Source: Catajapyx aquilonaris
Taxonomy: Eukaryota
Length of the DNA stretch: 55,775 nucleotides
Direction: 5' to 3'
Assembly (NCBI GenBank): GCA_000934665.2
Contig: JYFJ02000634.1
Span: forward strand, 62,001-117,775
The translations under genes were made by a program, and so were the position numbers. Below, piece after piece: positions 17,014-52,832 of this stretch; positions within the stretch are counted from its first letter, which is position 1; every line of letters starts with the position of its first letter. The notes beneath the pieces were generated by a model, which did no database searches, had not been told where the DNA came from, and saw nothing but the letters and a program-made list of their open reading frames with translations.

Positions 17014-17972
17014 TCAGCGTAGGTCGTATTGACCTCCGAATGTCTTGTACTTGTGCCAGGCGACCTGAATGACCCGGGCTGACCTGTCCTGCCTCTGCCG
17101 GAGCATGGTGGAGGACACCACTCGATAGGCGGCGGCGTCGCGACGGTGGGAAAGCAGGCTGGGAGGCGGCGTTTGTCTGGGAGGCAGGTAGCGTCGGGAG
17201 TGACCGCGACGCTGGAGCAGGTCGGTCAGCAGGGCGTCGGCGGCGTCCAGTGGATGCACGGCGTCGCCTTGCACCACTGGTATGCTGAGGGCGGCCACCT
17301 TGCACCTCCCGAGCTGCAGTGGCCTTAGAGGCGCCGGCAGCATCGCCAGCGCCTCGGCCACGTGGCTGGCAGGAAGCAGCTGCCAGCGGTTACCAGTGGA
17401 CGGCGACGACGCTCCGTACGCCGCCGCTGACCACACGGCGCCTCTCCACGCCCAGTGGAAGTCGTCCGCTATCCACTCGGTCACCCCAGTCTCAGCCTCA
17501 TCCTCGGCGGCCATCACCTCCGCGATCAGGATGGCCGGAAAGAACGCAGTCAGCACCACCGACGGCAGAAGCGACGCCAGCACAAAGACCATCACCACCA
17601 CACGCGACGCTGGCGACGCCTCCAGCAAAGTGGCTAGCAGCCGGTGCCAGCCGAACCCGCCCAGGAGGACCGGGAGGAGCGTCCCGGCGGCGGCGGGGAA
17701 GGTCTTGAACATCGCCTCTTGCTCCACCACCACCTGGGGCGTCGGGAGCGTCGGAGGGACGACGCCCGGGACGCCCAGGATCACCCCTCCCACTCCGGGC
17801 TTAGGGGGAGGCATCGGTGGAATGGGGCCTCCAAACAGGGCCATCCCCACCGTCGACAGGACCACAGTGTGGAGGGACAGCAGGATGGCCACTGCCACCA
17901 GGTTGGCCGTCGCGTTGGACATGGCCGACCATGCCACGCCCAGGGGCCTGCCCCGGGGCCGAAAACACAATA
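17014..17972 (-). CDS. Nav-like exon 17: DIV S4-S5 linker, S5, pore, S6, C-terminal domain, IQ motif, stop
   Basis: GMALFG...MFKTF...GGFGWHRLL...[19 protein letters not shown]...[28 protein letters not shown]; acceptor ctaccag (phase 1). Confidence 0.85.
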
Positions 17973-20900
17973 CTGGTAGGTTGGTTCACCTCATCTGACC
18001 ATCACGGTCAAGGTTCATGCAACTGTAGATAAATTTTTACAGATCGCAACCGTGTGCGCACCATAGTTCGCGCAGCTTGCACGGGTTGGCATCAGCCCGG
18101 CTTGCAACTCCATATTAGTTAGCGTGCGCTTAACGAGTATCCGCATCCCTGGATGTGGCGCACTGTGGCGCACTGTTCCAAATCCTATTCGGGCTGACGA
18201 CTTCAGAACGGTTCAAAAGTCGTCCGCCCGAATACGATTTGGTACAGTGCCCGACAGCAGCGCCTAATCCGGGGTGGCGCAGGACTCGTTAAGAGCACGG
18301 CCGTCCCCATAAGGCTAGGATGGGACTTGCGGGGGGCTAGTTGGCCTAAACAATGATAGCTCTCTCCGTAGTGGGTGTACTGGTAATTATGCATTGCAAT
18401 TGTTTCCAACGCTACGTTTGGTGGGGACAAAATGGCTGACGGTTTGCGATGTTCCCTCTGGGAACTAAACTCACAGGTGAGTTATTTGTTGGCTTCTCGG
18501 GAGTAAGTGTGGCAACGTTGTTATCGGAACAGTATAGCTGCGCGAGTGTGGGTGCGCACTCGGTTGCGTTCGTTAAAAATTCATCTATGAAACTGAGACT
18601 TGCGCCCTGAGCTGTCGTTAAACTCCTTACCGTGTCATCCGACACCGCATGAGCAGTGTACCGGTTCGACCCCATACCCTGACCAGACGCAACAACGCAG
18701 GAGACGGCAGTTGGGCTACTGCAGTGGCGCCAATCACCCTGGGAAGAGCACCGGTCCCTTCTGCAAAGACCAAGCTGGAGGGTCAGTACAGGATGATTAC
18801 ATTCGGAGAGATTAAGATTGTCTGACCCATGAGTGCTCCGATGGCTCCGACTGCGTCTGCAAGGTTCAGGGCGGAGCAGAAGAAGGTTTTCGGTCCGGAG
18901 AGGAACCTTGCGGCCGACTCGAAGCAGAGGAGCAGGGCCATGGAGCAGCTGATGAACTTGAGTCCGTCTGCCCAAGCCGGGTGGGCAGCACGGGCCGATA
19001 GGGACAGTGGGATCAGCTGGAGGACCCCTAGGGCCACGCAGCCTGCCTCCCAACCGTGGGACTGCACGTTCTGGTGGAGCGCCCTACCCAAGCGCCACTA
19101 CACGGACGGGGAAAGGAAAACAAAAAGGTAGGCTTATTGCAGGGCCTCCACAAGACAGCGCATGCGCAGACACTTCATGAGGCCCCGATTGAGTATGATT
19201 GACGCTCAATCGGGGGCCTCAGACCACGCCTTGTCCAAAGACGCATGCGCAAACTGTTCATGAGGCCCCGATTGAGCATGATTGACGCTCGTTCGGGGCC
19301 TCAGGCCACGCCTTGTCCAAAGACGCTTGCGCAAACTGTTCATGATGCCCGATTGAGCATGACTGACGCTCAATCGGGGCCTCAGACGTCCTATCTAGGA
19401 CACGTGATCGATGTTCCGTTTGGGGAGAAAGGTAGAACGCTATCCGCTTTTTTTTCCTTCAGGAAGATGGCAGAGAGTCATGACATGAATGTTATGTGTC
19501 ATCCTCATGGAATCATTCTCTGCTGACATGGAGTACACTGAAATTACGATTCAAGCTCATTTTCTCTCTCTCTCTTCCTTACTAGCAATATTCTGATGAT
19601 TAGTATATCCCCTGCCGATAAGGAAGTCTCGCCCTTTGCCCATAAATGTTATATCTGCGGTCACCAATGTCACCCTTTATTCAGTACGCCCTTGAGGATT
19701 GAGGAGAAAGGAGTCGTCTGATTGAGTCAAGTGCAGCATCCTCCGAGATGATGGCCAACATCGGCAGTTTTGGTCTGTATTTGTTAGCCATGTTCCTGTC
19801 AGGGGTCAATCATTCCCTGGCCCTCCCAAATAACGCGGCCGAAAATATTCCCCATGGTGCTGAAACGGAACAAATCAGTCAGATAGACAGACTGGAACTG
19901 GCCATACAAACAATGATGAGAGCTGTGGAGGATGGATTTGCTCGATCAGGTAATAATAAAGGGCCAATAGATAATTATCAAGTATTGTTAAAGTCCGTTG
20001 AATATGCTGTTACTTTTCTTCCATTGCGCAGCCCGAGAGAGGCGAGAGATCAAGGAGGAAGTGGGTTCATTAAAAGAGGAAATGACAACATTAAAAGAAG
20101 GAATGAAATCATTAGAAGACAAATTGAAGTAAGTGAGCAACCAACGTGTATAACGCAATATTTCTTTTACTGCCACCAACAGCCAAGGATGGAACAATCG
20201 TGATGTTACCACAATGATCCTTTGCTAACATGTTACGTAGATCATGTTAAATGTGTTCTGGAAAAGACTGAGAACTACTGATGAGAAGAGCATGTTGACC
20301 GAAATATGGCTACTTTTTCCATCAAATTGTGTGCAAATATTATTCTAGTGTCTCATCGAGTTGTGTGGAAGGTCAGACCCCTTCGACTGGAGACCTTGAC
20401 CCGGCCACGAGTGACCTGCAATGTGCGTCTGAAGCGAGTCTCGCAGCAGAAAAGAGACTCAAGGCAGAGATTGGTCAGGCAGTGGACACTTTCACCTCAT
20501 CGGTCAGTGGACAGAAATTGGGCAACACAACTGCTTGTCCGACCGAATCTGGTAAGTGGACAGATCATTGCTGCAGGGCCATAAAAATACCGTATACTGC
20601 AGCCCTGCAGGTGCTCCGGAAGAACTTTGCAGAACCGAAATGGTTTCTTATCTACAAAATGGTTGAAGACTAACTCTGGCAATAATTTATTATAGACCCG
20701 ACACCTCATGCAGTACCTCCATCAAGAAATTGCTACGACATGAAGCAACGAGGACACAGCTCTTCTGGCGTGTATTCTGTGACCATCGCTGGAAAACAAG
20801 TCCAGGTGAGGCTCGCGTAAAAAGGTTGCATTCAGCACCCTGAATGATTGCAGATTACATTTTTACTGTCGTCTTGCCCTCAGGTGTATTGCGATATGGA

Positions 20901-23900
20901 GTCGGATGGAGGAGGGTGGACAGTAGTGCAAAGAAGAGACGACATCGAGCCTCACGTGGACTTCAACCGTGAATGGGATGGTTACAAGAGAGGGTTTGGT
21001 GATCTGAATGGGGAGTTCTGGCTGGGTAAGTTACACTCTTATCACTTGTCACCATCACAGTACACGAATGGATTGACAGGCATAAAAGGCCTGGTTTCAA
21101 AATGCTGGGAAGGGTTATTCACTGTGGATATAAAAGTAGTCATTTCTTCTCACCAGTCAGTCTAAATCTACACTATTGTGGTGCCATAATGGCTTAACTC
21201 CCTTTTGATTGTAATCCCCATAAAACATAACCCGCATTGTCCCACCCCGTACAGGTCTGGACAACATCCACGGACTGACCACTTCCACTCCGATGAGACT
21301 CCGGGTGGACCTGGAGGATTGGGAGGGGGAGAAGAGAGTCGCCTTGTACCACACTTTCATGGTCCAAGATGAAGAGGAGAAGTACAACCTCACTGTGGGA
21401 GGGTACAAGAAGGGATCGGGAGGTGATGATCCGGGGAACGCTCTATACTGGCACAATGGCAAGGTCTTCTCCACAAAAGACCAGGACAACGATGGTTATG
21501 GAGTGAACTGTGCAGAGATGTACAAGGGTGGCTGGTGGTACATAACATGCCTCTCTTCCAATCTGAACGGAGTTTATCTCAAGGGAAGGCACGACCAATC
21601 CGGTCAAGGTGTCCACTGGTACTACTGGAAGGGATCGTATTACTCTCTAAGAAGAACAGCCATGAAGATCAGACCCAGATAAAAAGACCAGTAATGACCT
21701 TCTGCACATTTCCCACTTCAATACTCACCACCTTCGCCATTTTATAACTGATCTGCATATTGGTGACATATAGAATCGGTCATAATTATGTCTGTTTTGT
21801 TTCTTTTGATTAAGTCTACCGAAGGCTACGAATGTACCAGAAAACATCCGAATATTCTTTTGTATGTTACATTCCACCTTGAAGTTTCAATGAGGAATTT
21901 ACATTGATAATCTAATTAATGAAGTTCAATTATTCATTTGTGACTGACCCCATGAAACTCGAAAATTGGGGTCTCATCTAACACTACTATAATTATGATT
22001 GTGTTCTTCTATTTTTTAAAAAAATGGATAACATAAAACATGTCACTGGAGGTCTGGAGGTATGTGTCAATAAACTCCTTTTTTCAAAGACGCATGCGTA
22101 TTCAGTTCCTGAGGCCCCGATTGAGCATAGTTGACGCTCAATTGGGGCCTCAGACCCCTCCCTTTTGGCCCCATTTTTTTCCAAAAAGCGCATGTGCAGA
22201 GTGTTCCTTAGGCCCCGACTGAGCATGATGGACTCTCGGTCGGGGCCTCAGACCACGCCTTCTCCAAAGACGCATGTGCAAACGCTTCATGAGGCCCCGA
22301 TTGAGCATGATTGGCGCTCGGTCGGGGGCCTCAGACCACGCCTTCTCCAAAGACGCATGCGCAAACGCTTCATGAGGCCCCGATTGAGCATGATTTACGC
22401 TCCGTCGGGGCCTCTCAAACCCCGCCTTCTCCAAAGACGCATGCGCAAACGGTTCATGAGGCCCCAATTGAGCATGATTGACGCTCGTTCGGGGCCTCTC
22501 AAACCCTGCCTTCTCCAAAGACGCATGCGCAAACGGTTCATGAGGCCCCGATTGAGCATGATTTACGCTCGGTCGGGGCCTCTCAAACCCCGCCTTCTCC
22601 AAAGACGCATGCGCAAACGGTTCATGAGGCCCCGATTGAGCCTGATTGACGCTCGGTCGGGGCCTCAAACCCCGCCTTTTTTCAAGTTTCTGAGGCCCCG
22701 ATTGAGCATATTTTACGCTTTTTTTCCATCCATGCAACGCCGCGGGAGTTATCTAAACCAGCTAACTGTTGGACAGTAGTTGTTTACCTTCGGAGGAGAT
22801 GAGTAGTGCTGGGGCTGCCATCTTTCCAGCTTTTTCATGGCCGAACAGTACTGCCTCATGGCCGCCTGATGGAACATGTCCAGGGTCGTGCCCCTGACAA
22901 ACAAACAAACAAAACAAGTCCATTGTAATGGCCTACAAGAATCCCGCAAACACATCCATCTATCTCTCCATGCACGCTGTTGGCGTCTTGCCGTACTTTT
23001 GCCTGAGCAGGGCTTCGAGGAGGGCCACGATGAAGAGCCTTATGTAGAGGAAGGCCGCCAGCAGCAGGAAGAGACCGAAGTATGCGCACGCGTAGAGGTT
23101 GACGTCCCTGATGGGCTGCAGGTTGGGAGCCCTGGCGTCGGTGGCGTCGGTCACCACCCCTTCCCATCCTTCCAAGGTGGCCACGTGCAGGAGGGACAGC
23201 AGGGCGCTCCAGAAGTGGTCAAAGGTCAGCTTGGCGTTCTGCCAGGTCAGCCCTTCCTTTTCGCAGGCCGCGCGGGTCGGCACGGCGTCGTGCGAAACCG
23301 CGTTGCCTCCCTGATCGACACACTTGTGGAATAGCCCTCCGAAGAGCTGGACGCCCATGCAGGCGTAGATGAAGAGGCAGCCGAAGCAGGAGAGGAAGGC
23401 GGCCAGCAGGGAGGGAAGGGCGTCGATCAAAGCGGCGCCCAGGCGTCGGCATCCACGCCACCAACGGAGAAGACGGGCCAGGCGGAGGCTGCGGGACGCC
23501 CTGGACGCCCGAAGCAAAGGGCCGTCCCCGGGGCCGCCCCTGGGCGCTGTCAGACCCGCCAGACTCAGCTGAAACGGGCACCGTTAAACTGTAGGCTGTC
23601 ATAATTTGGCAACACTGCCCAGCTCGTTACTTGGAGGTAGTACTATAAGCCACTAACACTGCTGCCGCTCCCAGGGGGAAAGTAGTAGGCTACTACATGC
23701 ACGTTGGTGATGAGTCACAGCCCGCCACTGAAGTGAGTCCCACCCTCTCTGACCGCTCTAATTGTTGAGGTGGAAAGTGAAAACTATGGGAACTGCTACG
23801 GACATGCAGACGGACTAGTAGTATGATAGCAAAGCCCTACAGGGAATATGATGTTCATGTCAGAAGATGAAATGAAGGTACCAGCTGTGTCTAAATTGCG

Positions 23901-26900
23901 TTTCTAAGCCGGTGAGCACACCTCAGTTGCGGTAATCAGAGAGGAAACGTATGTGGCTTATAACACGATTTGAACGGGTGCCAAAATCTTCTTTGTTAAG
24001 AGATCAACCCCTCAGAGGCATCTTGGCAAAGTTACTGCTTCACTGCGATGTAACCTTAACCGCTTACATAATTAATTACGAGTTACGGCCGCAGAAAATT
24101 TCCAATTTCAACTTTGGCCAAGTACAACCCCCCCTCTCATGGGGCCTATTCTAAAACACACGCGGCAAAGACTTGCACCAGAATTTATGACAATTTTTTT
24201 TTGTGTGTTGCTCCACCGCGATAAATTTGCAAGGAGGTGAAATTACTGCCCCCGAGTTTATGCAGCATTACGCCGAGTGCTCGGGAAGACTAACTTTCCT
24301 CCACATTTTTTAGTAGAATTTAACGACATCATATTACGAGGAAGGAGGGTCGCATGGCATAGCTATCACTTAAAAGTGTCCACAAAAAGCGACATTAAAA
24401 TTAAGGCTTAATAGAAAATTAGTAAGCAGAGCTGTGGACATAAACAAACATTCAAATGGGGGGCCAGCACCCCCTCAGCATAATGGAAGGGGCGGCCGGT
24501 TTAGAGGAGAGTCCTTTTCACACACACACACACGGAATTCCAATGAGCTCAAATGGAACTTGTGCACTTGCACCCAACTAATCAGCATTCATTTACATGT
24601 TAATTAACAAGCAGACAACGGTTGGCAGGTGCAAACCTCACCGCAGACATGCTCACTTAAGCTCCACTTGCACGCGTTGACTCATCACCAACGTGCATGT
24701 AGTACTAATTTCCTCCGCAGAGCGCCATCTAGTGGTGGCATGTCGTACTACGTTCAAGCCTGCCACATTTTCACAACTTCTGATGCCATGTTATTACTCG
24801 AGTGTAATTGGGCCGGATTTTCCCCAACGTACACAGGCTGATCGAAATGGCTTTTGTGAGGCAGACCAGCCATTTGAACTTTGCTGAGGTCAACGGCTGA
24901 GGTCACACCGGCCTCAATACATGCAGTGCATATCGCAAACAGTAGCTATTACACTATCAGTTCCCAGAAGAGTGATTACTATTGGCACGAGACCAACACA
25001 AAAGAGGGCACTATTATGCTATGCAGGCCCAAAAAGAAGCACGGGTTGGGGGCCACTGCCTCAATGCAACAATGGTTAACTGTCGAGGGTCACGAATACG
25101 TATCGATCTCTCCAGATCAATAGGCCATGACCCACAGCTATGCACATTAATTTTTGACCAAAAAAAAAAGTCCCAGGCACAAATGGCTTTCTTTTTTTTG
25201 CCACACACAGATCCATGCAAAAATGGGGCTGGAATATTCTTGCTCTTTAAAAAGCGGTAAGGTCGATAGTGCAGCCCCGCAGCACTCCATCAAAAAGAGA
25301 TGGGCCGCTCCCTACCTGCACACATCCATTTCACTCTCAATTATTTGGCATGCTTAACTAGAAACCTAATTAAGCGGGAGTCCCCACTGGTTACATGGGA
25401 ACAGCGCATACACTTTGCGAGGAAAGTACACCGGTCATGTTCCCACCGGAGCTCAAAAGTCTGAAACAAGTACAAAGTTCCCCGTAGTGTTCAGATAAAA
25501 AATCAGCAATGTTCAGTGCAACATTAAAAAAATTATGCAACATTCAGAAAAATTATGCAATGTTCTTAACAAATTACACAATCTTCAGAAGAAATTCTGC
25601 AACATTAAAAAAAAGATTATGCAACGTTAAAAAAATTATGCGAAGTTCATAAAAATTCTGAATTGTTCCTAACAAATTCTGCATCATTCAGACCAAAACT
25701 TGCGATGTTCATAAAAATTCTGTAAATTCTGCAAATATTCTGCAATGTTCAGAAAAAAATATATTTCAACATGAAGTAAAAATTATGTCACATACGAAAA
25801 TAAAATAAAATCTTTAACATTCAGAACATAATTCTGCAACGTTTGTTCAGAACAATTTCTGCCACATTCAGAACAAAATTTGCAATGTTCATAAATAAAT
25901 TGTGCAATGTATCACAAAAGTGAGGCAAAAACTAACTCCGTTAAGTGTCACAGTTCAACAGTCCGCGCACTTGCTACAAGCAAAAACATGAGGCCCAGTC
26001 CCAGAATAGAACCGGCTCCGAATAAACTCTTGTGACGCCTAGTGCGGAGAACAAGGTTGTATCAACATGGCATAAAGGAAGTGTTTTAGTTCGGAATGGA
26101 TCGATGCCTATCCATTCATGCAACTGGGGCCACAATCAAACAGCATTAATGCATGCTCTGCCATGTTTCAGAGATTGATCTGTTGCGCTCCCCCACGTTT
26201 TATGCACGTCACCCACTAGAAATAGACCCGCATTTGCAGAATATAGACCAGGCTCTATGAATAAGTCATGCGAGGGCATACATACATAAAGACTGCTTGA
26301 TACAACTAACCGAGAACGTGCTCAAACGTTCAGGAAAAAAGGCCGCTGATGGGATTACATTGCGCTTGGATTCACCTGGGAATTGCTTATTGCTATGTGC
26401 ACACTAACCATATTGTTTGTACACGAAGATACGCAGACAATAGCTCATATATTACTCAGATCAGGTGTAACGCAACGGAACGTACTGTTTATTTTATAAA
26501 TTAGAACATTTTTGATGTTTACATAATAATACAGAATAAGTTCGCCACACATCTGTTTACGTAAAATGAACGAGCCGTTTTTATCCTACAGAAATAGTTG
26601 TGGCGTCCTGCAGATGCTACTCATTTCAGTTGCTGTCACGACTTATCGGACATAGTCGACGAGCATTACGTGTAACAGCAGCATTATTTTAGAGCTTGCG
26701 ACTTGGAATTCGTTGCGATGCAGGTTGTGTTCAGCCTAATATTAAAAGTTGTACTCACGAAGAGAATGGCAAAGTCGAGCCCCTGCAGAGGGTCCTGTAT
26801 GAGATGCGTGGGTCCGTGGGCCAAGATGCGGAGAAGCAATTCCAGGGCTAGAAATGCGGTGAGTCCAGCGTCGATGAAGTCCATTGCGAAGGCGATTCTG

Positions 26901-29900
26901 GGTCGCTGCTCGAGTGTGTTGTCGTCCAGTCCAGCCACCACCACACCCGCTATGATGACAAGCGTCACAGCCAGTCTGAACAGACAGTTGTGCAGGATAC
27001 GGAAAGATGCGTTTCTCAGGCAGGCCCACCGCTTCCCTTGCGTCCATGGGCAAGCACCGGCTACGAACCCGCCAGTGGACGCAGTCGATGCTCGTGGCGT
27101 CGCCTCAACTTCCATCTGCTCCATTGAGTTCCCTCGGCTGGAAATAAGAGACGATGACTTATGGTTCTGCGTTGCGTTTTTCAGGACTTACCTTCTGTTG
27201 ATTCCGGCTGCGGCGTTAGCGGTGGTTCCGACTGTTGTCTTGGCCGCTTTGTGTCCGGCTCCGCACTTGTGTCTGATCCAGTCGACCAGCTCCGGCAGCC
27301 TCGATCCGCTCCAGAGGGCCAGCTCATGACCTCTCCGCCAACCTCTAGGTCGCGGGTTGACCAACAGACTAGCCAGGAACAGGTTGCTGATTATCAACTT
27401 CCCTGCTAGGAGAGCCAGCAGGAACAGCGGCAGAGCAGTGGCTAAGGGTACTGCGGGTTGAAGGGCTGCTAGGGGCTGGCTCCATCGGCCGAGGAAGGTT
27501 CGGAACATAGCCAGCAAAGAGTGGGCAAAGGATGCGCATGCCCATCTAGGAGGAGGCTGACCTTTGGCTGACCAGTACTCTGAAACGACAACAGAACAAT
27601 TACGCTGCGGAAGAACTTGTCGTGATTCAATCAATGTGAGATTCGCTACCTTTCCGAAACCAAGTTACGTCAGAGTTGGCAGAATTCTGCCAGAATTAAT
27701 TACTGGACTTAAGCTCCAGTTCTAATCAGCAGCCCCGGATTCCCGCATCAAATTACACCGGATTTGCACCGGATTCCCGATGTTTTGATTGGAAAAGCTC
27801 AACCTTTGTATTCGGGACTCAAAGAGAAAAGTAAGCTGCTTTACTCCACTAGTTTCGAGGCGAGAGCTTATTATCTTTGTATCAATCCCGGGCCTGTGAT
27901 AACAATAGACTTTTAATAGATAATGACATTCATTTCCGAGTCAGCCTCATATGCGGATATGCAGCCGATCCAAGCTGTTAAATAAATCACAGCTAGTGTT
28001 ACATCACATAAATCATGCCACTAATGATTAAATTCATGTATCACCCACTTTGGCGAGGCTTGTATACAATGCTAATAAATGTTTTGTCAGTTTAGCAGCT
28101 TATTAGCATTGCTGCGGTTTCAGCATTAGACGCTAATGTTTATGTGTATTTATGGGGGCCTCGTGAGAGCAGCTGTCGCTAATGCTATCCATCAAGCGGA
28201 GGATGATGGAGAGCCATGATGATCGTCACAAACGCCAGGGATGTTAGACTCACGTATGAGCATGGGCTTGAATATCCGTGTGCAGACTATTGCCAGGACG
28301 ACCAGGAAGCCGCTCAGATGAAGGGTAGTCAGGGCCAGCATGCGACCAGCAGCTCGGATACGACGCTCCAGAAGAGCAGCTGGACGCCACAAGGATGCAA
28401 GGGTCGCAAGTCGAACTAGACGCATCTGGAAATACAAAAATGCACCATCGAATCACTAAATTCCCAATTAGCACGTAGATATCCGTGGGACATCCCATGT
28501 CGATATCCGTCGGACATCCCATGTAGATATCAGTCGGACATCCCATGTAGATATCCGTCGGACATTCAATGGAGATATCCGTCGTACATCCCATGTAGAT
28601 ATCTGTATGACATCCCATGTAGATATCCGTCGGACATTCAATGTAGATATCCGTCGGACATCCCATGTAGATATCCGTCGGACATCCCATGGAGATATCC
28701 GTAGGACATTCCATGGAGATATCCGTAGGACATTCCATGGAGATATCCGTAGGACATCTCATGGAGATATCTGTATGACATTCCACGGAGATAACGGTAG
28801 GACATTCCATGGAGATATCGGTAGGACATCCCCTGGAGGGCAGAACGATCATGGATTAATTTATCCAAGATGCAAAACAGTTTCTTATGTAAAACCTGCA
28901 TACGTTAACTCTCGCCTACATGTTTCAGGATACGTAGAAATCAACCAAACCTTCTGGGGTCATTCACATGTTACGTCAGTGCTACTTGAACGGTGTACAC
29001 AATAAGTGATTAACTTAAAGCTAGATGTTTCGATATGATAACAGCAGTAAACCACTAATGGGAGTGGAATTAGAGTTTATGATACGCAGTACATGTTCGC
29101 AATCTAATCTGCTCCTCTTGTTTGCTTAATTACTTTGCAACAAACGCAGATACACGTAAAACGTAACAGTGTCAAATTAGCAGGCGACACAGTTACTACA
29201 GAGAGCTACAAGGTGAAATAAAATACTGAAGTTTGCTGGTTACGGCCCATAAATGTATGCGAGTATCGTTACGTACTTACTAACAAATGTTAATTATTAT
29301 TAAATGAACAATTCATATTTGACGTCCAATTTGTACACACATTTGCTTAGCATAAACGGAGTTTTGACATGGACATTATTAACCTGGTTGGGATAGTCAT
29401 AAATTTGACGGCCGCAATTTTTGAGGTTGCAAAGTGAAAAAGATTTTTATCGGTGTAGCTATAACTCCGCTTCTTTTTCTAATTTGAATCAGCTGTTTTA
29501 TGGGTACCGCTGAAAATGTCTGGGCAGCCAACTTTTTTTTAACGGCTGATTATGTAATAAAGTGGAGACAGGCTAAGCGATTCCGGCAATTTATGGCAAA
29601 GATTGGGCTGGAAGCGAAAGGTTCCAAGACGCTGGAAAAGTAACGACGCAAGTATTATGCGACAGACAGCAAATTTGCGTAATGCATGTGGTAAATGGCA
29701 GACACAAGTCGTGGACGTCAGGTCATTGCACAAATTCATCCACATTGAGCTGTCAATCAATCAGCTCAGTCAGTCGCATACGGCTTAAAGGAATAAGTGA
29801 GTCCACTGGCTTAACTTACCGTCGTAGCAGCCCGGAGCAACGGCAGAAGTGCTTCGTCTCTGACCAGATGTGTTGAGGCCGAAGTGAAGGCCATGGCCAG

Positions 29901-32900
29901 CTCGAACAGGTGACACGCATCCCGCAGGTAGATCCTGGGTCCCAGGGCTATCAGCTTCAGCACAGCCTCACCGCCATACACGCACGTGAAGATGAAGTCC
30001 GCCTTCCTCAACTTGGCCAGCAGCGATGCGTCCAGCCCATGGTGGAAGCTCACCATGGCCACAGCGTCGCATCCGAGAGTCCCCAGCAACAGTAACTCGA
30101 TCCGTGGGTCACTTATGATTTTCTGCAGACATGTCCTGTTAAGAAGAACAATCCCGTTACTAATCCGTTACATTCCCAGTATGTATAAAATTGCAAGTGT
30201 ACCTGAGACACCTGCACTTAGCAGGAGCTGCTACCTCTACAGGATCCCTGCCACTTGAGGACGAGCTCTCGGTTGTGATGCCGGGTGATGGGCACTCTTC
30301 GTCGTCATCCGCATCGTTGTCCGTCTCGTCCACGTTGGTTATCGTAGGGTCCTGCCGATGATCTGATTTGGATGGTGACGGAGCCTCGGAAGCCACAATG
30401 TACGGTGTCCCAATTGTTATCGAAGTTTCTTCTGCCGTGTGGCGCGGATGGTGGTCTTGAAGGCGCTGGAATTTAATTCCACGCATTCTTTTTTTAGAAA
30501 ATGCTATGAAGAAACAGAAGCCGAATTCCCCCAATAAAAGGTGCACTATTCATATTTCCAAGGCGTAACTTGAGCCCCTAGCAATCATAGTTTACGTACA
30601 AAACTACAAAAGAAAACGACTGCAAATATCTACAGAATTTTCTGTCAATGTGGCTCGTCGTAGCAAGAATTTTAACCAATTTTACAGCCACGTTTACATG
30701 TGAGCGATTTATCAGCTGATAAAAAGTATCAATATATTTTCGTCCCAAACAATTGGTCTCATCGCTGCAACATCGCTGATCAAATAGCTTCCGTGCAAAC
30801 GTGGTTTAAGTAACGGCTCACTCATCGCACATGAAATAAGGCGTAACGACCATACCTGTAAACGTCGCTGCAACCTCACAACGCTTTCGAGTGAGGACAC
30901 AACAACTGCGGAGACCAGATTGCAGGTCAGCAGGGCACAGGTCACCAGCGCAGGAAGGAAGAAGGTCAAGCACATCGGGCCAGCCACGCGCATAAACTGC
31001 AGTAGAAATAACGGTAAGTCACGAGGTCGAATTCCCTCTTTTCCACGTGTGACAAACCTTGTGGAATAGGTCGGAGAGCGTGTCGGAGGTCATGATCCTG
31101 AGGGCAGTGAGCAGCCCATCTGTGAACGAGTCAAAGGTGGACTGGGGCATGCCTTGCGGACTCCTGCCGTACCCCTGTCTGCAGGTGAAGTTCATCAGTG
31201 TCTGCAGGAACCCATCCTCGTCATCCGAGGCTCTGGCTACGTGACCCAGCGGACACTTCCATGCACCGGTGGTGTTTCCGCACAGTGCGTACTCGCCAGA
31301 CTCTTCCGCATACCAATTCGCTTCGGGTCATAACCAATGAGATTATGCACACTTTATTACAATAATGAGCAGGCCATACCTGGATTTGAAAAGAACGCTC
31401 TGAGGTCATCCGGTGAGAGTGGTGGTGCCCCAGGTGGCGGGTCTCTTACGCACTTCCGGGTCAGGACACCCGCGTTGAGCTCAACTCCGACCAGGCTGAC
31501 CACCCCGAGAGACAAGAGCAGCAGAGGAGCCGCGCGGAAGATCCCAAGCAGTGCCGCACCCATTCCGCCAGTAACCGCTTTATGTTCTGCGTACACGGAA
31601 AGCAGTGCTTACGTCCACATATTGAACAAGCAACGGGGGCTCACCTGGGCTACAAGACGTACTCTCCTGCACGTAACGGATGACACGGAGAGCTCGAAGT
31701 GCTTGCAGTGCACCACTTATCTCCCAGTACGGTATCATGCAGGCGCTAAAGAGCAAAAGCACAAATTATTCGTATCCATATTTGTAAAAACCCTGTCAGT
31801 TAGTGTTGACGTGGGTGCGACATATTAATTAATCTGTTTTCAGGTGGACACATTATATGCTTGCCAAAACATGCTCCATTCCTGTGGGCCGATGCAGGTG
31901 TTTACAGTTATTACAATTACGAACGTTCATATCGTTTGTATTCACACAGTGCGCACAATGGGTGGTAACACTAATTGCGAAACGTATCCCCGAGGCAGCT
32001 GCGGTTTGAATGGACTAATTCAGTGCATCAATTACACTCGTCATAACCCTCATTTTCCTGGCAGAGCGTTACAAACCGCAAGTAGTTGCATTTTAATAAA
32101 ATGTAATTCACATTATGATTACATGCCAGTAAAACAATGCTCTACGTGCAATTAATTCAGTACGGAAAAAAATATTGCGGAACAAACTCTGTAAATAATA
32201 ATTAATTAATTTCTTGAACAGGTATACATTTCCCCTATGCGTCGTGCTATGAGAGATATTACGTCAATGCACTGACCACCAAATGACAGTGAGTAATCCA
32301 TCCAGCACGTTCCAAGGGTCCCTGAGGTACGAGAAGGGCTGCATGAAGAACCCGCGGGCCACGATCTTGAGGCCCATCTCATGAGCGTAGACAAAGATGA
32401 AGGGGAACTCGTATGCGGACGTCCCTGGGAGGCTGATGAAGAGGACCTGGGCAGCCAGATGAGCCAGGATGAGAAGGAGCATGGTCCGCTCGAAGCAGGG
32501 GACCACGCAGACTCTGAGGGCCAAGCGACGGACCGCATTGTGGGGGCCAAACAGCCACAGGGACCTCTCCGCACTGAACCGATGGACACGACGCTCAGCA
32601 TTCACCACCACAAACGTCTGCAATATCACATCGGATTAGTCTCAGATTGACGCCGGTTGTCATACCGCACCTTATGCGAGTTCCTGTAGTACGGATCCAG
32701 GTCTTCCAAGGGGTCACCCAGCAGACCGAGAGGAAGGGCTTCCCTCAGCCGCGGTGCCAGGATGGTTCCTTGCCCCAACGACTCATCCGGGTGACGACGC
32801 TGCTCACCGTCACGGAACAATGGAGCCGGAGACTGCGGACGGAAAAATTCATTTTTAATTAATTCGCTCATTTATTAATATGAACTATAGCTGCCAGAAT

Positions 32901-35900
32901 TTGGCAACACTGCCCAGTGCCCAAAGTGTGTCCCAACCTCTCTGACCACTATAGAGAGTGAACCTGCTGTTGTGTCCTCCCATCATTGAACAGGGAAAGT
33001 GATAAATATGGTAACTACATGCACTTTGGTGATGAGTCAACGCGGGTACAGGGACAGAGTCACATCTAGCCAATTCTGTGCATGATTACGCTTAAATATT
33101 ATCCTTCTAATGGCGTAAAAATATATCAGATATTTTTTTTCCTCATCTGAGGTCGGAATGACGCCTTGACTCATCACCAACGTGCATGTAGTTACCAAAG
33201 TTGTCACTTTCCCCATTCATTAATAACGAGATGTACGATGTAGTAATGTACGAAACTCATGTACCAATAATGTACTAACTAATGTACTAAATGTTACCTG
33301 TGGCAGTAGCCTACTAATAATGTATACGAAATATGTATTGTGTACGTCCTACGGATATCCATATATCCAATGTCCCTTCAGTGGAGATGTGGATATCCAT
33401 AGGATGTTCCAGGGAGCTTCGTTCTACCTGGGAGATTCGCTCATCTCTAGAGCGGTCAGATAAGAGGGTGGGACACACTTTGGACTCCAGTGTTGCCAAA
33501 TTCTTTTGTGTAATGGATTAGCTATACTTTAGTCATATGTACAGAATTGGCTAGGCGCGACTCTGTCCCTACATGTAGGGCCTAGGTGCATGTATTTTAC
33601 CATATAGTTATCCCCATTCAATAATAATGAGAAAACACGAGGCGGTTCACTGACTGTACGGTGGTCAGAGAGGTTGGGACAGTCATATACTAGTTGGGTA
33701 CTGGTTGGGTACTAGTTGAGTACTGGTTGGGTACTAGTTTGGTACTGGTTGGGTACTAGTTTGGTACTGGTTTGGTACTAGTTTGGTGCTAGTTGGGTGC
33801 TAGTTGGGTACTGGTTGGGTACTGGTTGGGTACTGGTTTGGTACTAGTTGGGTACTGGTTTGGTACTAGTTGGGGCTAGTTTGGTCTAGTTGGGACAAAA
33901 TGACTCATATACAGAATTGGCATATACAGGCATATTTACAGAATTGGCTGCCTGTGACTCTGTCCCTGCAAGCGTTGACTCATCGCCAACGTGCATGTGT
34001 CATTTTCCCTGTTCAATGATGACCAGGACACAACAGCAAGGCTTATATATTGACCGTATGGTGGTCAGATATAGGTTATTGGGACACACTTTTGCTATCA
34101 GGCCAAATTTTTGACCTGGTGTCCAGCAGCCTTTGACCCGTGTTGATGACCTCCCCTGACCCACCCCACCCCCTGCAGTGTAATCAATATGCAGCGTGTA
34201 GGTCAGGAGGATGGTTCAAAGACACACATTTATGGGTGCGGCTTTTGGATCGATATGCCGTACAATGGGTATGGGTACCCGGGCCATGCAGTATAGGCTA
34301 TACTCACAGGTGCACCGGTGCAGGAGGTGCTGGCGCCGTCCAGGGCGGCCATCAACCTGGCCAGAGTGGCGCAGGTGAAAGGTCGGAAGGGCAGGTTTGA
34401 CCTGGCCCCAGCCAAGGCCGCCTCCCATTCGACCCTGTCTCCATCGGCCCTGGAAGGCACCACCTCCTCCTCCATCACCACCTCCTGGTGATGGTGGTGG
34501 TGGTGGTGATGGTGATGCTGGTGCTGGGCCTGCATCACCACACGTACGGTGCACTGACCCGACCAACCCCCCTCCGCAGGGGGAGTGTGTGTGTCTCTAC
34601 ACCCAACAGAAAGGGTGTGTGTCCAATGGGATCAATATTGTTGCGCCTGCCCCCAACAGAGCACCTCTCTCTCTCTCTCTCTCTGGCTACGACCCTCTCT
34701 TCAGGGGTACATATACAGCGTTGTGTATATCCATCACCTGAGAGCCGTGATTTATATCGAGTCATGCCGTGACACACGACACTGCATCAACTTCAATGGG
34801 CTTTGCCGAAGAACATGTTAACCGCCACTGATGGCAACACTGGCGGTTAACATGTTTTTCGCCCGAGCCGTTCAATTGATTAATTGTCAGTCTCTGTGTG
34901 TTGTACACACGATCATGTTCTCTCCGCAAAATGTATGTTGTTACTCGCACATATATGACACGCGCACCTTATTTTTAAACCTTTGCGTTCAATGGGCTCC
35001 AAAATGGCAATCTAATTAGACTTAATTTATATCGAGGAAAATGTTGCTGTCATAAATTACGGGTTGATTTTTCGCCCCACTGCTACACAGTAGGGGCAAG
35101 ATAACTCATGCGTTTTATGGGAGGTGGCTTGTGTCCTTGGCAGCCATAATTAGCCCCGCCCCCTATACCGGTCGACCAATCAGGATTCGATTTCGAAGGA
35201 GATGTTCTCAAAAACCTCAAGAATGAGATCGGTTTGTTTACACTAACGCAGTTGGCAACCCAGCAGGGGGCGGAGCTAATTATGGTCGCCAAGGACACAA
35301 GCCACCTCCCAAAACCCTTAGGCAGGGAGCATATACTGCACAAGAGGCGCAAACATTCGATTTCCGCGTCTCTCTGTTTGGGGCGTTACCAAGGCTGGCG
35401 GCCCCAAACAGAGAGACGAGGACATCAAAGGCGCCAACAGAAGTTTGCGCCTCTTATGTACAGTAGTATATGCTCCCTGCCTTAGGTTATTCTGTCCCTA
35501 CTGCAGTACCTGCTAACTTAGTACCATTGCCAATGGGGGATAATTTTCCCAATAACTGTCCACAGTAGGTCAGTGACAGATGGGAAAATCACCTCCCTTG
35601 GCAATGGTACTGTAGAGTTAGCAGTGTAACTAGCAGTGGGACGAAAATTCCACTCTTAATTTTTAATTTCAAAAGTAAAGGTGAAGTGGGGTAAGTGCAT
35701 ACACGGGGTAAGTGCATAAACAGGCCGCCATATTGGAATGAAAATAGCTGACGACACCAAATCGCATCAGGCACTCTTCGTGTAGCTGCACATAACATCC
35801 CCGGACGCGTTTTGGTGTCGTCAGCCATTTTCATTCCAATATGGCGGCCCGTTTATGCACTTACCCCGTGTATGCACTTACCCCACTTCACCTTACGTAA

Positions 35901-41662: not shown

Positions 41663-42129
41663 CCTCCGCCTCCTGGCACCTTCCAGGCTGTACACCTCCA
41701 CTGTATATTTCACATCGGTCACTGGAACCACTGGAAGGGGAGCGACTGGAGTCCTGGACTACTCTGGACAGCCGGAGCGAGGCCACTGATGGCGCAACAG
41801 GGAGAGCTCTCAAGGTCACGTGCGAGCCTCCCCTCCCTCCCTTCCACCCTCCCTAAAACCAGTGCTACCAACAGCTGGCCTACTTTTCTCCAGCGCTTCC
41901 AGCCCACCCCTGACCTAGTGTGGCACCAATGTCAAGGTCACTTTGCTACCCACCACCCAAAATCTTCGATCACCGCATCGCCCCGCATCATCATCCCGCC
42001 TATTCGGCGCCTGCGTACTACTGGAACATTTTCTCCAGCTAGCAGACCTCCCCTTTTCGCCCGGAATCGGCTCAGCAGCAGGATCACACAAAAAAACAAC
42101 CCCGATCGTCATTTTCCTCCTGGATATAT

Positions 42130-45625: not shown

Positions 45626-48600
45626 CTACACCTTTGCTACCGCCGGGAACGGACTAGAGTAGGAGAAGCCATGTGGAGTTCCCTTCTGCTTGTGCAACCC
45701 AGGGGCAGACCCAGGGGCAATCGGAGGGAAGGCTGAAATGTTGAGCGGGGCCAAGGTCGGCTCCACTAGTCTTACTGATCCGAAGAAATCTGTGACCGGC
45801 ACTTTGGCAGGGTCGGTGCCAAACAGATCGGATCGGACACCAACGGTGGAGATGCAGAGGCGACGTGGGCATACCTCAAGCTGGAAGGTGCAGAAAAGAC
45901 TACTCACATAAATGTCATCATTTGCATACTCTCCATAAAATCAATACTGAATTTATACGTCCAACCCAGCAATGATCGTGCATTAAATGCCAGGAGGACT
46001 CGAGCCCATCTGATTGCTGACAGGATTTATAGTTCGCCTGAATCAATTATTCTGCAGATGCCAAGTTAATATCCTTTTTACGCTCCTCTGGCCATTACAC
46101 AGAGTAGGTCAAGAGTCTTTGCCAGGCAGTTACGCAGTAATTGGCGTATCCACAGCAACATTTATGGCGACCAAAGAGTTCTGCTATTATATAATATAAT
46201 ACCTAGAGGAGGTACTCCATATCCTTTTCCATTAGACAGGCTGAGGCAGCCGCCATCTTGTTGGAGGTCATATTGTTGTTCTAACAGTTGTCTAGCAACT
46301 GGGACAACAACCAATAATGACAACTGGGACGACAATTAGTTCAATAATGTCAGGCAGCCGCCATCTTGTTGAAGGTCATATTGTTGCCTGCATTGTTGCC
46401 TGCCTCACATTTCAGGCCGAGTACCTCCTCTAGGTGTATATATAATATAGCAGAACTCTTTGATGGCGACTGATTGGAGGCAGTGTGCTAAACCCTCATC
46501 GCAAAGGCATTGGTGAGGCAATAAAATTGAAAGCAGTCGTTAAGCAGTGGATACGACCGGTCGAGGTTTTTTCCCAGTTGTAATGTTCGTTTGGCAGAAA
46601 AATGACAAATCCTGATTGTATGACACTAGCGATCAACAGAAGTTAATGCAACCGGTCAGCTTATGGGAAATCTACTCACAAACTGAGCAAGTGTGTGGCT
46701 GCTCCCCGGCACAACCTTCTCCAGAAACTCCAATGCGTAGTAGGTGTATCTGTCGATGATGTACACGCCAATGGCTGGATCCACGTGGTGAGAGAGCGAG
46801 TCCTCTCCTACAAGGCTGGAGGCCACTGCCAGCACATTCGGCGAGTAGAGCCTCCGATACATGGATTCCGCTTGGCAAGTGTCCACCATCAGGAACAGCT
46901 TGTGGAAGCGGCCTGTTGAAGAGGAAACATGCATATTGCATTTTTGATGGATTTCATTAATCGGTTTGTAGTAGCGAGTATTACAGTCATATGGAAACCA
47001 GAAATCTCTCGTTCTCGTTGCAAAAGTGACGATTTGGCTATGGCAGACCTCGGTTATAACAGACTTGTTTCTGCTGTTTCTTGAGCCTGTTTTATCCAGA
47101 TGCAACTGTATTATTAACTCATTCGCTACCTGCTATATCGCCATCGCCTAGATTGTCGCTTTAAGTACTATGAACATAAGGACAAGATATTTTACATAAT
47201 AATAATACAGTAACAGCTACATTTATACACATTCATGCTGTGCATGTGACAAAAACAATTTACTCGTCTAGAAGACCCTAAATAAATTTTCAATAAGATC
47301 TCCGTAAAAACTCGAAATTCAGGTATTTCCGGCCAACTGCTGATTTAATTATGAAATACGATACAGGATGCAGAATATCTACCTTGAGAACTGTGCCAGA
47401 CGAATTTGCTGAATCGTTGTATTTCACGAGGATTAAACGAATTTGGGGATTTTTCCGAAGTAAGCCGCAGATAAGAAACCACATTTTCTCGGGAAGTACC
47501 ACGATTTCAGCGAATTCCTTTGGCGCAGCTCTCAAGGTTGACATTCCATATGTTTTAATGGAGGCTATTTCATGTTTCAATCACACTAACAGTACTTTCA
47601 TTCTGCCACGGAGGTCTTACTACCCTTTTTTTCACTGAAGGGAATGTCTTTGAGAAATACTATCACATACGAGGGGGGTTCATAAAGTTCAAGCCTTTGG
47701 GTTGAAGGATGTGAGAGAAACTGTTCACATTGCACACATGCATTAATCCTTTCTCTCTATATATTAACCCTGCAAAGCCACATATTTTTCCCAACGATGC
47801 ATGACTTGTTGGACACCATTATTGCCGAAGTCGACACTTTTTACTTGAAAAAAAAGTTTTCAACCTGGGTGAGGCTAAGGAAATGCTGGCGATGTTTCGC
47901 TCCGAAGATGGCAATTTTTTCATCCGACTCATCGTCATGGACGAATGTTGGGTGCACCACTACGACCTAGAGACCAAATTACAGAACAAGCAGTGGAAGC
48001 CTTGTGAAAGCGACGAGGGGGTGACCACAGAAGTTGAAAACAATTTTCAAGCGCAAAGTGTAGACTTCTATAGTGATGGTGTCCCACAGGTCGTGAATCA
48101 CTGGGAAAAATGTGAATGGCTTTGCAGGGTTCATGCAGAGAGAAGCACTAATACATGTGTGCAATTTGAACGGTTTCTCTCATTTCCTTCAACCCAAAGG
48201 CGCGAACTTTATGAAGTCCCTCTCGTACATGCTCTAGTGAACAAAGTATTTATCAATATTAGATCAAAAACTTTCCCTTCAGTAAAAAAAAGAGAAGTAA
48301 GACCTCCGCGGCGGAATAAAAGTACTGAAACAAGGCAGGCGCACGTAAGACCTTCACCAATTGATTTAAGCTGTACCATAGGTCTTACTCAAGCAATTAC
48401 CAATTGAAGGGGTTAGTGCCATAACGTGCTAAGCCACACTTTCGCGTTTTTCGAGCTTGCACGTGTCTGAAAGTCCCACCATCGTGCTTCACAAGTGGGC
48501 ATCACGTAGTTAGAAAAATTCCCCATAGATCACGAGAAAATCACGAATCAAGTTCCTTGTTTTGTATGATTTGCCATATTACGCCAAACTTTTGAAAGCC

Positions 48601-51600: not shown

Positions 51601-52699
51601 CCATGTCGCAGGAGCACAAAGCTTCCATGCTCTCGCAGATTGGCCATAAAATGCCGGATGAACCGTTCTCCAGGGTGTTCCTGTATGCGTACAACCTTGC
51701 AGTACGTGCGGCGACCTCTCCGCAACTAGCATGGAGCACAACCATGTCCCACATCTCCGAATTCGGATATGCTGGACACATGGCTGCTTGAATGGCATTC
51801 GAATTTGTTCAAATCGATCTTAATTTGTTTTGTGTTGTTTAATCCCTAATTATCAACTGCTGTTATTTCCGATTTCTGATTCCAACAACTGGTTGCTAGC
51901 CACGGACATCGTGCAGTACTTCCGTCAGATGTAAGAAGACCGTAACTCAAAAACCAGTAAGGGTGAAAGTCGCATGCATGTCCTGGACTAATCCCTACTG
52001 ACTCAGAGGGGATTAGCGCAGGGCGTGCATGCGACTTTCACCGTTACTAGTTGTTGAGTTACGGTCTTCTTACATCTGACGGCAGAGTATGTCTGCATGC
52101 CCACGAGCTACTGCCATCCAGGTACTTTACTTAATGTCTTAATCATAGGGACATGAAATATTCTTGGAAAATGCTGTCACTAAATATGATCGTGGAAGTG
52201 GACGGGTTAATGAACCTGTAGTCGACTTCGACGTCGTCCCCGTACACGTTGATGTGCTCGTTTGCATTGTTGAACACGGTGGCCGGCCTGGGGTTCCTTG
52301 GGTTGCAGGCCATGTCGTCCGCAACCATCAGGATGATCTGCGAGTCCGGGATCCCCAGTCGCCGCACCTGAAAAGCCGGGCCAACAGCGGCTGAGTTTCT
52401 GTCCTCCTTGTTGAGGAGGAGGAGGACACAGTGTGGTGGGGCATGGATGCTTCCTCCAACGGGGGGCATATACTCACGCTCCTGTACATGGAGAGAACGT
52501 TGGCTACATGTCGGTAGTTGAACCAGAAGCGCGACGTGTCCACCAGCACAGCCCAGTTGTTGGTGTGTCTGGAGGAGGAGGAGGAGGAGGCGAACTCCTC
52601 CGGGATGCCGTCCTCCTGGACCGACGAGGCACGGCTTCCCAAGGCGGCAGCCGAAACGAGGAGAAGGAAGGAGAAGAACGCCCCTGGCCCGGCCGCCAT
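45626..52699 (-). CDS. PIGK: GPI-anchor transamidase catalytic subunit (PIG-K/GPI8, peptidase C13), 358 aa
   Basis: Exons 52478-52699, 52216-52367, 50877-51091, 46680-46912, 45626-45880 (1077 nt, phases 0/2/1/0). Motifs [69 protein letters not shown] (catalytic His), DTCQA (catalytic Cys), [16 protein letters not shown]. Confidence 0.96.
46172..46462. mobile_element. Non-autonomous TIR element with 8-bp TSD (hAT/P-like)
   Basis: TIR caaagagttctgcta...tagcagaactctttg; atggcgac duplicated at 46164-46171 and 46463-46470. Confidence 0.85.
47670..48225 (+). mobile_element. Internally deleted mariner transposon relic
   Basis: TA-flanked TIRs cgagggggg.ttcataaagttc / gaactttatgaagtccctctcg; peptide [20 protein letters not shown] matches the mariner first-D motif, then C-terminal remnant FY.DG...V..WEKC. 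Confidence 0.85.
48258..49308. mobile_element. Element with ~140-bp near-perfect terminal inverted repeats, containing a nested MITE (48402-48658)
   Basis: 48258-48398 is the reverse complement of 49166-49308; nested TIR aattgaaggggttagtgcc...ggcactaaccccttcaatt. Confidence 0.8.
49511..49947. mobile_element. Pogo/Tigger-like MITE
   Basis: cagttgaatccg...cggattcaactg ends with internal ttataaccgagg repeats; inverted partial copy at ~46933-47110. Confidence 0.7.
50391..50427. repeat. (AAG)n microsatellite
   Basis: Pure AAG run. Confidence 0.9.
51917..52089. mobile_element. Palindromic MITE
   Basis: ccgtcagatgtaagaagaccgtaactcaa...ttgagttacggtcttcttacatctgacgg, TA flanks. Confidence 0.8.
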
Positions 52700-52832
52700 C
52701 TTTGTTTGGAAGGAAACGGGCCCGTTCCCACGCACGGACACTAGGAACTGTTCGGAGGTCGCGTTCGGACCCGCGAAACAGTTCGGCGGGGAGTTCAAAC
52801 GGATTGAGACAGTCTATATATTTCAATAAAAA

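Follow-up and report, generated by a model that had tools for sequence, protein, structure and literature searches.

Introduction

Few animal proteins are as conserved as the four-domain voltage-gated sodium channels, and the residue rings of their selectivity filter are textbook invariants. In Nav1 (para-type) channels, the pore loops (P-loops) of domains DI to DIV supply an inner ring reading DEKA and, three residues further on (+3), an outer ring reading EEMD, Nav2 channels having DEEA at the inner positions. Both rings, together with the aromatic residue that follows the DI Asp, are contacts of tetrodotoxin (TTX) and saxitoxin (STX) (PMC9698786). The conserved asparagines of the S6 segments form state-dependent hydrogen bonds between segments that stabilise the open pore, and are gating contacts, not permeation charges (PMC8876033). 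The present work concerns a sodium channel-like gene in which most of these elements are altered. It is read on the minus strand of a 55,775-nucleotide stretch of the Catajapyx aquilonaris genome (assembly GCA_000934665.2, contig JYFJ02000634.1, positions 62,001-117,775 of the forward strand), hereafter called the window, whose coordinates are used throughout. With a probability of roughly 0.55, the gene is taken to be a live, Nav1-derived paralogue under relaxed constraint, whose product would be insensitive to both toxins and either poorly conducting or silent.

Several sodium channels that depart from the usual plan have been described. PaFPC1 of the American cockroach reportedly entered the literature as that insect's second para-like gene. 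The channel, also known as NavPaS (PDB 5x0m, 6a95), has currents that are difficult to record (PMC9388133) and binds TTX, as the title of PDB entry 6a95 indicates. Cnidarian Nav2.5 channels have an inner ring reading DKEA, with Asp in DI, a basic residue in DII and Glu in DIII (PMC3809514, PMC6259924). The P-loops of NvNav2.5 confer sodium selectivity, whereas DKEA alone, when placed in NvNav2.1 or Nav1.2, yields non-selective cation channels (PMC3809514). In aphids, a heterodimeric Nav with a DENS filter is predicted to have lost sodium selectivity (PMC4332693). Finally, the most diverged vertebrate Nav, Nax, is devoid of voltage gating and is thought to be a sensor (PMC6259924).

The pore of the Catajapyx channel

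The gene model was built by hand from stop-to-stop frames and the raw sequence, its splice sites being checked by a script working on coordinates only. It comprises 16 exons running from 32871 down to 17014 on the minus strand and 15 introns, all of them GT-AG. As the same check showed, the single open frame of 1591 codons ends in TGA and has no internal stop or frame break. Residue pairings were taken from an alignment (MAFFT) of the model with 45 homologues, and those of the pore and of the inactivation motif concern the following features:

31073..31084, minus strand: DI ring codons D363-T364-L365-S366 (alignment)
27476..27487, minus strand: DII ring codons R697-W-S-Q700, R697 being CGA (alignment, HMMER)
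27398..27400, minus strand: K726 (AAG) of DII S6, at the G-N-L site of the family (alignment)
27383-27385, minus strand: N731 of DII S6, retained (alignment)
23158..23172, minus strand: DIII ring codons E1054-G-W-E1057-G1058 (alignment)
23038..23040, minus strand: R1098 (AGG), at the conserved Asn site of DIII S6 (alignment)
22869-22877, minus strand: M1118-F-H1120, at the position of the MFM/MFL particle (alignment)
17641..17655, minus strand: DIV ring codons F1379-G-W-H1382-R1383 (alignment, AlphaFold)
17536..17565, minus strand: DIV S6 stretch P1409-P1418, in which A1415-F-F aligns with N-M-Y of the family

A first-pass annotation of the window had listed a series of substitutions in the P-loops (DTLS for DFWE in DI, RWSQ for EWIE in DII, FGWHR for AGWDG in DIV) and in the S6 segments (GKL for GNL in DII, YIRLF in DIII, loss of the Asn and presence of two prolines in DIV). 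These shifts are real and, if anything, were understated. In DI, the stretch D363 to S366 pairs with D-[FY]-W-E of the homologues, the aromatic residue after the Asp being T364 and the pore Trp L365. In DII, R697-W-S-Q700 pairs with E-W-I-E, the same pairing being returned by HMMER against human Nav1.1 and Nav1.8, and in DIV F1379 to R1383 faces A-G-W-D/N-G/D. Three changes had not been pointed out before: Arg697 occupies the inner filter position of DII itself, DIII has Glu1054 at its filter position where Nav1 has Lys, and the DIII Asp at +4 is Gly1058 (the +4 Gly of DIV being R1383). The inner ring is therefore composed of D363, R697, E1054 and F1379 (or G1378), and the outer one of S366, Q700, E1057 and H1382, so that three of the four inner positions and all four outer positions differ from those of Nav1.

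The ring and S6 pairings thus stood when the pore positions were realigned, with ambiguity remaining at the DIV filter residue, either F1379 or G1378. The DIV P-loop has a one-residue insertion, and MAFFT pairs the Ala of the family with G1378, leaving F1379 as the inserted residue; HMMER did not align this stretch. In an AlphaFold model, G1378-F1379-G1380 is part of the turn that joins the two pore helices, its predicted local distance difference test score (pLDDT) being about 60-79.

Regarding the S6 segments, Asn397 of DI and Asn731 of DII are retained, the Asn of DIII has become Arg, and that of DIV is lost, with A-F-F in place of N-M-Y and prolines at 1409 and 1418. R1098 falls in a column that is Asn among the homologues (168 of 194 rows in a first-pass parse that may take the wrong repeat in some of them), and the alignment likewise supports K726 at the GNL site. 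The inactivation motif reads M-F-H where invertebrate Nav1 channels have MFM, and continues with Q-A-A against T-E/D-D/E-Q of the homologues. The protein consequently does not have the DEKA ring, the EEMD ring with its DI aromatic residue, or the IFM/MFM particle of Nav1, and its Arg697 in DII departs from the DEEA ring of Nav2.

Several of these codons are one nucleotide away from a canonical one: E1054 (GAA) from Lys, Q700 (CAG) from Glu, H1382 (CAC) from Asp or Asn, R1383 (CGG) from Gly, K726 (AAG) from Asn, and R1098 (AGG) from Lys (AAG), which is the residue found in NavPaS. Since all ring and S6 codons, spread over four exons, lie deep within long open exons, the residue calls are independent of splice choice.

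Affinity with Nav1 and comparison with described channels

Matches to Pfam Ion_trans (PF00520) in exons of all four repeats place the protein in the four-domain channel superfamily. Alignments to Nav profiles span residues 22-416, 503-738, 827-1319 and 1395-1582, and a profile built from nine Nav1 proteins scores 613.5 bits versus 547.0 for one built from nine Nav2 proteins, Nav1 being ahead in all four segments. Against solved structures, the DIII exon finds NavPaS/PaFPC1 first (E = 8e-46), then human Nav1.x and then Cav channels, and the C-terminal exon also finds NavPaS first, with 39 bits versus 28.7 for Nav1.7. Nav1-type channels from a spider, an abalone, a mantis shrimp and a damselfly match best over the full length among the fetched proteins, a wasp Nav2 coming next. 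The AlphaFold model of exon 16 (mean pLDDT 75) displays S5, a disordered Pro/Gly-rich turret, two pore helices, a long S6 and a helical C-terminal domain, and Foldseek relates it to Nav1.7, to Nav C-terminal domains bound to calmodulin, and to NavPaS. The best reading of these comparisons is a four-repeat Nav-family channel that is closest to Nav1 and would be derived from it.

With Nav1/para channels the protein shares the 24-helix four-repeat build, the R-x-M-T-x-D motif of the DI P-loop, a [10 protein letters not shown]-terminal box, the MKKL box of the III-IV linker and the IQ motif. It differs from them in keeping only D363 of the inner ring and nothing of the outer one, in its MFH motif, in the degenerate S4 segments of DII and DIV, and in the loss of the S6 Asn of DIII and DIV. 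NavPaS, the top structural match for both the DIII and the C-terminal exons, resembles it further in its length of about 1600 residues, in its short linkers, in ending just after the IQ helix, and in having Lys at the DIII S6 site where the Catajapyx protein has Arg1098. However, NavPaS keeps D-Y-W-E in DI, F-K-G-W in DIII and S-A-G-W-D in DIV, all of which are changed in the Catajapyx gene, besides being able to bind TTX. The likeness comes from pairwise scores, from the DIII S6 Lys/Arg and from the C-terminal end point, and does not imply common descent, the tree described below having been computed without PaFPC1; among the fetched proteins, Lys at the DIII S6 site turned up only in scattered non-Nav1 cases.

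The inner ring of cnidarian Nav2.5 is similar in its Asp in DI, basic residue in DII and Glu in DIII, a resemblance in working principle and not in membership. The DII residue is Arg versus the cnidarian Lys, the DIV residue Phe or Gly versus Ala, the gene comes from an arthropod-type genome, and the tree offers no grouping of the two, no cnidarian sequence having been identified in the tree set. Moreover, the selectivity of Nav2.5 needs its whole P-loop context, which is not shared by the Catajapyx protein. Vertebrate Nax (SCN7A), also an intact but diverged Nav paralogue, is a functional analogue only: it belongs to another lineage and matches the Catajapyx gene more weakly (119 bits) than Nav1.x or NavPaS. 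The aphid channel is another arthropod Nav with a non-DEKA filter, but it is the sole Nav of its host, is split over two genes and retains the acidic Glu of DII, whereas the Catajapyx gene is a single four-repeat gene and probably an extra paralogue. An inner ring of the D-R-E-x type or an outer S-Q-E-H ring is absent from the filter sets in the excerpts of a 2018 review (PMC6259924), and no mention of either turned up in the excerpted selectivity-filter literature that was searched.

A damselfly "para-like" protein among those fetched (P0138, 1426 residues) is a further diverged arthropod paralogue of para. It keeps DEKA, with eroded S4 charges in DI and DIII, and has G-W-L-Q after the DIII Lys, as in NavPaS. 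Diverged para-like genes of such compact build may be common among arthropods.

Erosion across the protein and the question of a charge shift

The four voltage sensors are unequally preserved. The S4 of DIII has eight Arg in perfect three-residue register and that of DI reads Q-R-R-R, with three of four charges, while the S4 of DII retains two of five canonical charges in register and that of DIV two, after which the register slips. Losses are not confined to the sensors or to the pore. Among 188 near-invariant columns (at least 95% conserved in 24 Nav1/Nav2 proteins), 108 keep the family residue and 80 (43%) have lost it, every module being affected; for instance, 13 of 16 are kept in the voltage-sensing domain (VSD) of DI, 21 of 35 in the pore domain (PD) of DIII, 6 of 15 in VSD-IV and 10 of 22 in PD-IV. 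Identity to the family consensus climbs with column conservation, from 17% through 25%, 31% and 43% to 57% (108/188) in the most conserved class.

The losses go together with a marked bias in composition. The whole protein has shifted to residues whose codons are GC-rich, being poor in K, N, D, E, I and Y and rich in A, P, R and H: Lys amounts to 2.1% (5.8% in homologues), Asn to 1.9% (4.7%) and Asp plus Glu to 7.4% (12.1%), against 7.4% Arg (4.9%) and 12.4% Ala (6.2%). The GC content at the three codon positions is 0.635, 0.496 and 0.713, and that of the introns 0.443. Throughout the protein, conserved acidic residues persist in 22 of 39 columns and conserved basic residues in 32 of 43, of which 26 are Arg and 6 Lys, whereas conserved Asn persists in 7 of 24. 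A pore-specific loss of the S6 asparagines was considered and rejected, because Asn is lost at 17 of the 24 conserved columns of the protein; the disappearance of two of four in S6 is simply the background rate.

This background bears directly on the proposal, made in the first-pass annotation, that the channel had undergone a coordinated gain of positive charge and now conducts a different permeant, for example anions. The residues invoked do exist, namely the Arg at the DII filter, the His-Arg pair after the DIV Trp, the Lys of DII S6 and the Arg of DIII S6, and the vestibule has 3 to 9 fewer negative charges than those of homologues. When charge is counted as K+R minus D+E from filter position -1 to +8 in the four repeats, the P-loops sum to -2, whereas 38 homologues average -7.9 (range -11 to -2); channels with DEKA fall between -5 and -7, with the exception of P0145, at -2, which has an aberrant DII P-loop. 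The vestibule nevertheless remains net negative, with D363, D367, E1054 and E1057 present, and the inner ring D/R/E/F has a formal charge of -1, equal to that of DEKA.

New Lys and Arg residues were scored at 926 columns in which at most 5% of the family is basic. They occur at 2 of 37 P-loop and 1 of 116 S6 columns, which gives 3 of 153 along the permeation path versus 19 of 773 elsewhere (Fisher p = 0.73), that is, without any enrichment. The single result that speaks for the proposal concerns conserved acidic columns, of which 1 of 6 is kept in the P-loops and 21 of 33 in the rest of the protein, a post hoc and marginal difference (one-sided Fisher p = 0.046). The Asn of the DII GNL motif is usually treated as cavity-facing. 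Its replacement by Lys has precedent in 2 of the 35 homologues displayed. R1098 occupies a site that makes gating contacts and does not contribute a lining charge (PMC8876033), and NavPaS has Lys there. In addition, a basic DII residue combined with Glu in DIII is known from a natural cation filter, and no anion-selective four-domain channel appears in the excerpted literature on selectivity-filter variants, in which no search was aimed at anion selectivity. Taken together, the pore changes do not resemble a directed reversal of charge and would rather be part of the erosion seen across the protein.

Coding constraint and the search for orthologues

A mixture-model tree of 39 rows gives the gene a terminal branch of 4.61 changes per column, the median being 0.87; its best identity in the tree set is 28% over 1340 columns, and a composition test flags its row. 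Such divergence cannot accrue neutrally without breaking the frame, and for the greater part of its history the gene has therefore probably been subject to coding selection.

Orthologues were sought in large protein collections. A word-index protein search with the DIII exon gave a best identity of only 40%, to an abalone para-like protein, an exhaustive HMMER search of 1.84 billion representatives gave about 42% at best, and a search with the C-terminal exon found no orthologue among 8000 scored candidates. The top HMMER match, P0036, is a NALCN-like record that owes its rank to an internal duplication. An exon of a fibrinogen-type gene nested in the channel gene, searched as a gauge of how well relatives are covered, gave 54% identity at best. 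Close relatives are thus probably missing from the collections searched, and for this reason the lack of an orthologue is weak evidence.

Records P0036 and P0041 both have internally duplicated channel segments, the same stretch matching the window twice, and are probably gene-model artefacts.

Proposed function and competing explanations

The preferred interpretation is that of an extremely fast-evolving but still coding para-type paralogue with a compact build like that of NavPaS/PaFPC1. Still in place are the four-repeat fold, the DIII sensor with its full charge, most of the DI sensor, the core of the III-IV linker and the C-terminal EF-hand/IQ module. Its erosion would have been driven by relaxed constraint together with a GC-rich substitution bias, turning K, N, D, E and I into R, A, P, H and L. 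The pore that results, D/R/E/(F or G) in its inner and S/Q/E/H in its outer ring, is still net negative. Binding of TTX or STX is expected to be lost, as had already been suggested, because only D363 of the nine toxin-contact positions is unchanged. Fast inactivation would be absent owing to the MFH particle and the degenerate S4 of DIV. The earlier suggestion of poor cation conduction also seems plausible from the residues at hand: at best, the current would be small, carried by monovalent cations with poor selectivity and with little Ca2+; at worst, the channel may be electrically silent and serve as a subunit for voltage sensing or scaffolding, much like Nax or the hard-to-record NavPaS.

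Some observations weigh against this interpretation. The tree leaves the gene unplaced in its Nav1/Nav2 part, joined to another long branch, so that descent from Nav1 rests on profile scores and motifs, and there are also Nav2-like motifs, namely P-L after the DII ring and E..V in DIII. The protein collections provided no orthologue and hence no measure of purifying selection, and the intact frame would be compatible with a very recent death of the gene. Lastly, the loss of acidic residues from the P-loops above background could reflect selection on the pore, and the inner ring retains the charge pattern of DEKA/DKEA, a hint that permeation may still matter.

These last two points lead to the first alternative, in which the filter was adaptively rebuilt by moving the basic residue to DII and the acidic one to DIII and by neutralising the outer mouth, the outcome being a working, toxin-proof and possibly sodium-preferring cation channel. 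In formal charge and in its DII-basic/DIII-acidic layout, D/R/E/x indeed equals DKEA or DKEG, which are listed among sodium-selective filters in which the fourth position takes no part in selection (PMC6259924), and the DKEA layout works in NvNav2.5 P-loop chimeras (PMC3809514). Furthermore, Nav1.4 channels with the K1237R change (DERA) have been expressed and recorded (PMC3457692), and VSD-I and VSD-III are largely retained. Yet NvNav2.1-DKEA and Nav1.2-DKEA are non-selective, meaning that DKEA alone is insufficient (PMC3809514), and Arg is not equivalent to Lys, K1237R dramatically altering selectivity (PMC3457692). The surroundings of the ring are changed as well: the pore Trp of DI is Leu, and the DIV P-loop has an inserted residue, a Pro in mid-helix and a Phe where the filter turns. 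Across the protein, 80 of the 188 near-invariant residues are gone, and no orthologue was found that would show the ring sites being held. An adaptive origin of the filter is regarded as unlikely, though it fares best among the alternatives.

A second possibility is a relic, a gene inactivated not long ago or left untranscribed, whose odd residues are the product of decay. The loss of 43% of near-invariant residues, a terminal branch five times the median, and the fact that neither an annotated protein nor an orthologue is found in two large protein collections would all fit such a history. However, about 4.6 changes per site have accumulated with no stop or frame break in 1591 codons and with 15 canonical introns, which demands coding selection during most of that time. 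The GC content of third codon positions (0.71) has not relaxed to that of introns (0.44), the retained identities fall at the most conserved columns of the family, and the eight Arg of DIII S4 stand in perfect register. A dead gene is therefore judged quite unlikely.

Rather improbable is an independent arrival of an arthropod Nav1-derived channel at the cnidarian-style layout, in which a D-R-E-x ring and a nearly uncharged outer mouth would make up a cation channel proof against guanidinium toxins and gated mainly by the DIII and DI sensors. Should this be true, it would represent a third natural solution for a sodium-permeable filter in four-domain channels.

The altered-permeant proposal discussed above is, in view of the net negative vestibule and the unremarkable frequency of new basic residues, very hard to credit. 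Equally hard to credit is an artefact of gene modelling or assembly: the model was indeed made by hand from genomic sequence alone, with two ambiguous donors and an open 5' end, but the changes are many, independent and spread over four exons, with the ring and S6 codons far from exon borders, and single-exon HMMER alignments to solved structures give the same pairings.

If the gene is, as preferred here, a live Nav1-derived paralogue under relaxed constraint, it offers a natural experiment on the need for each element of a sodium channel, the rings having been altered and two S6 Asn and the inactivation particle lost while the fold and two good sensors were kept. In case it conducts, it would test the effect of Arg in place of Lys at DII and the dispensability of the outer ring; in case it is silent, it would add an invertebrate example to the few non-channels derived from channels, such as Nax. 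The gene further illustrates how a drift in composition across a whole protein can pass for a "designed" change of charge in a functional site.

Exon layout of the channel gene

Each internal exon of the model is preceded by AG and each exon except the last is followed by GT. For two exons the donor could be either of two sites (31645 or 31663; 30212 or 30203), and the model is provisional at its 5' end, with three candidate N-termini. The best-conserved part of the gene is exon 12. The exons, with the two upstream frames that could supply other N-termini, are the following:

34233-34631 and 41171-41758, minus strand: upstream frames bearing FRP, alternative N-termini (motif like that of the channel N-terminus)
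32671..32871, minus strand: exon 1, provisional first coding exon, with the N-terminus, FRP motif and PLEDLDPYY box (own ATG; start uncertain)
32277..32617, minus strand: exon 2, DI S1-S3, DPWNVLD motif retained (Pfam Ion_trans E = 3e-8; tblastn 36-38% identity to Nav1 proteins; AG/GT)
31645..31745, minus strand: exon 3, end of DI S3 and S4 (Q-R-R-R, three of four charges retained; alternative donor 31663)
31380..31586, minus strand: exon 4, DI S4-S5 linker and S5 (model, splice check)
31058..31320, minus strand: exon 5, DI turret, with Cys residues and N-x-T sites, and P-loop (model, alignment)
30856..30996, minus strand: exon 6, DI S6 with the conserved Asn397 retained (model, alignment)
30212..30465, minus strand: exon 7, short acidic I-II linker (alternative in-frame donor 30203)
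29820..30135, minus strand: exon 8, DII S1-S3 and start of S4 (Pfam Ion_trans E = 1.2e-7)
28254..28425, minus strand: exon 9, DII S4 (two of five canonical charges in register) and S5 (model, S4 comparison)
27192..27579, minus strand: exon 10, DII P-loop, S6 and start of the II-III linker (alignment, HMMER)
26759..27137, minus strand: exon 11, end of the II-III linker and DIII S1-S3 (Pfam Ion_trans E = 7e-5)
22997..23568, minus strand: exon 12, DIII S4 (eight Arg at three-residue spacing), S5, P-loop and S6 (Pfam E = 2e-27; NavPaS E = 8e-46)
22788..22893, minus strand: exon 13, III-IV linker, MKKL box retained (model, alignment)
18827..19097, minus strand: exon 14, DIV S1-S3 (model)
18631..18760, minus strand: exon 15, DIV S3-S4 loop and degenerate S4 (two Arg in register, then a one-residue slip; model)
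17014..17947, minus strand: exon 16, DIV S4-S5 linker, S5, Pro/Gly-rich turret, P-loop, S6, EF-hand-like C-terminal domain, IQ helix and stop (model, AlphaFold, Foldseek)

Repeats, nested gene and neighbouring sequence

Inspection by eye of the translations and the raw sequence revealed long repeats, tandem or dispersed, among them one repeat family at about 19.2 kb and 22.1-22.8 kb (19130-19450 and 22135-22780; intron 13 and the flanks of introns 12/13), as well as a short-period tandem array of about 390 bases in intron 8 (28470-28860). Intron 13 of the channel gene houses a nested gene on the plus strand (19703-21682), in which two frames contain a fibrinogen C-terminal domain (PF00147, E = 6e-20 and 2e-46). 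A 166-residue frame lies upstream of them, and the best relatives of this gene are ficolin or techylectin-like proteins, with about 54% identity. Further along the window, the minus-strand frames 46656-47132 and 52143-52853 match Peptidase C13 (legumain/GPI8 family; E = 4e-5 and 1e-6) and are probably exons of a neighbouring upstream gene.

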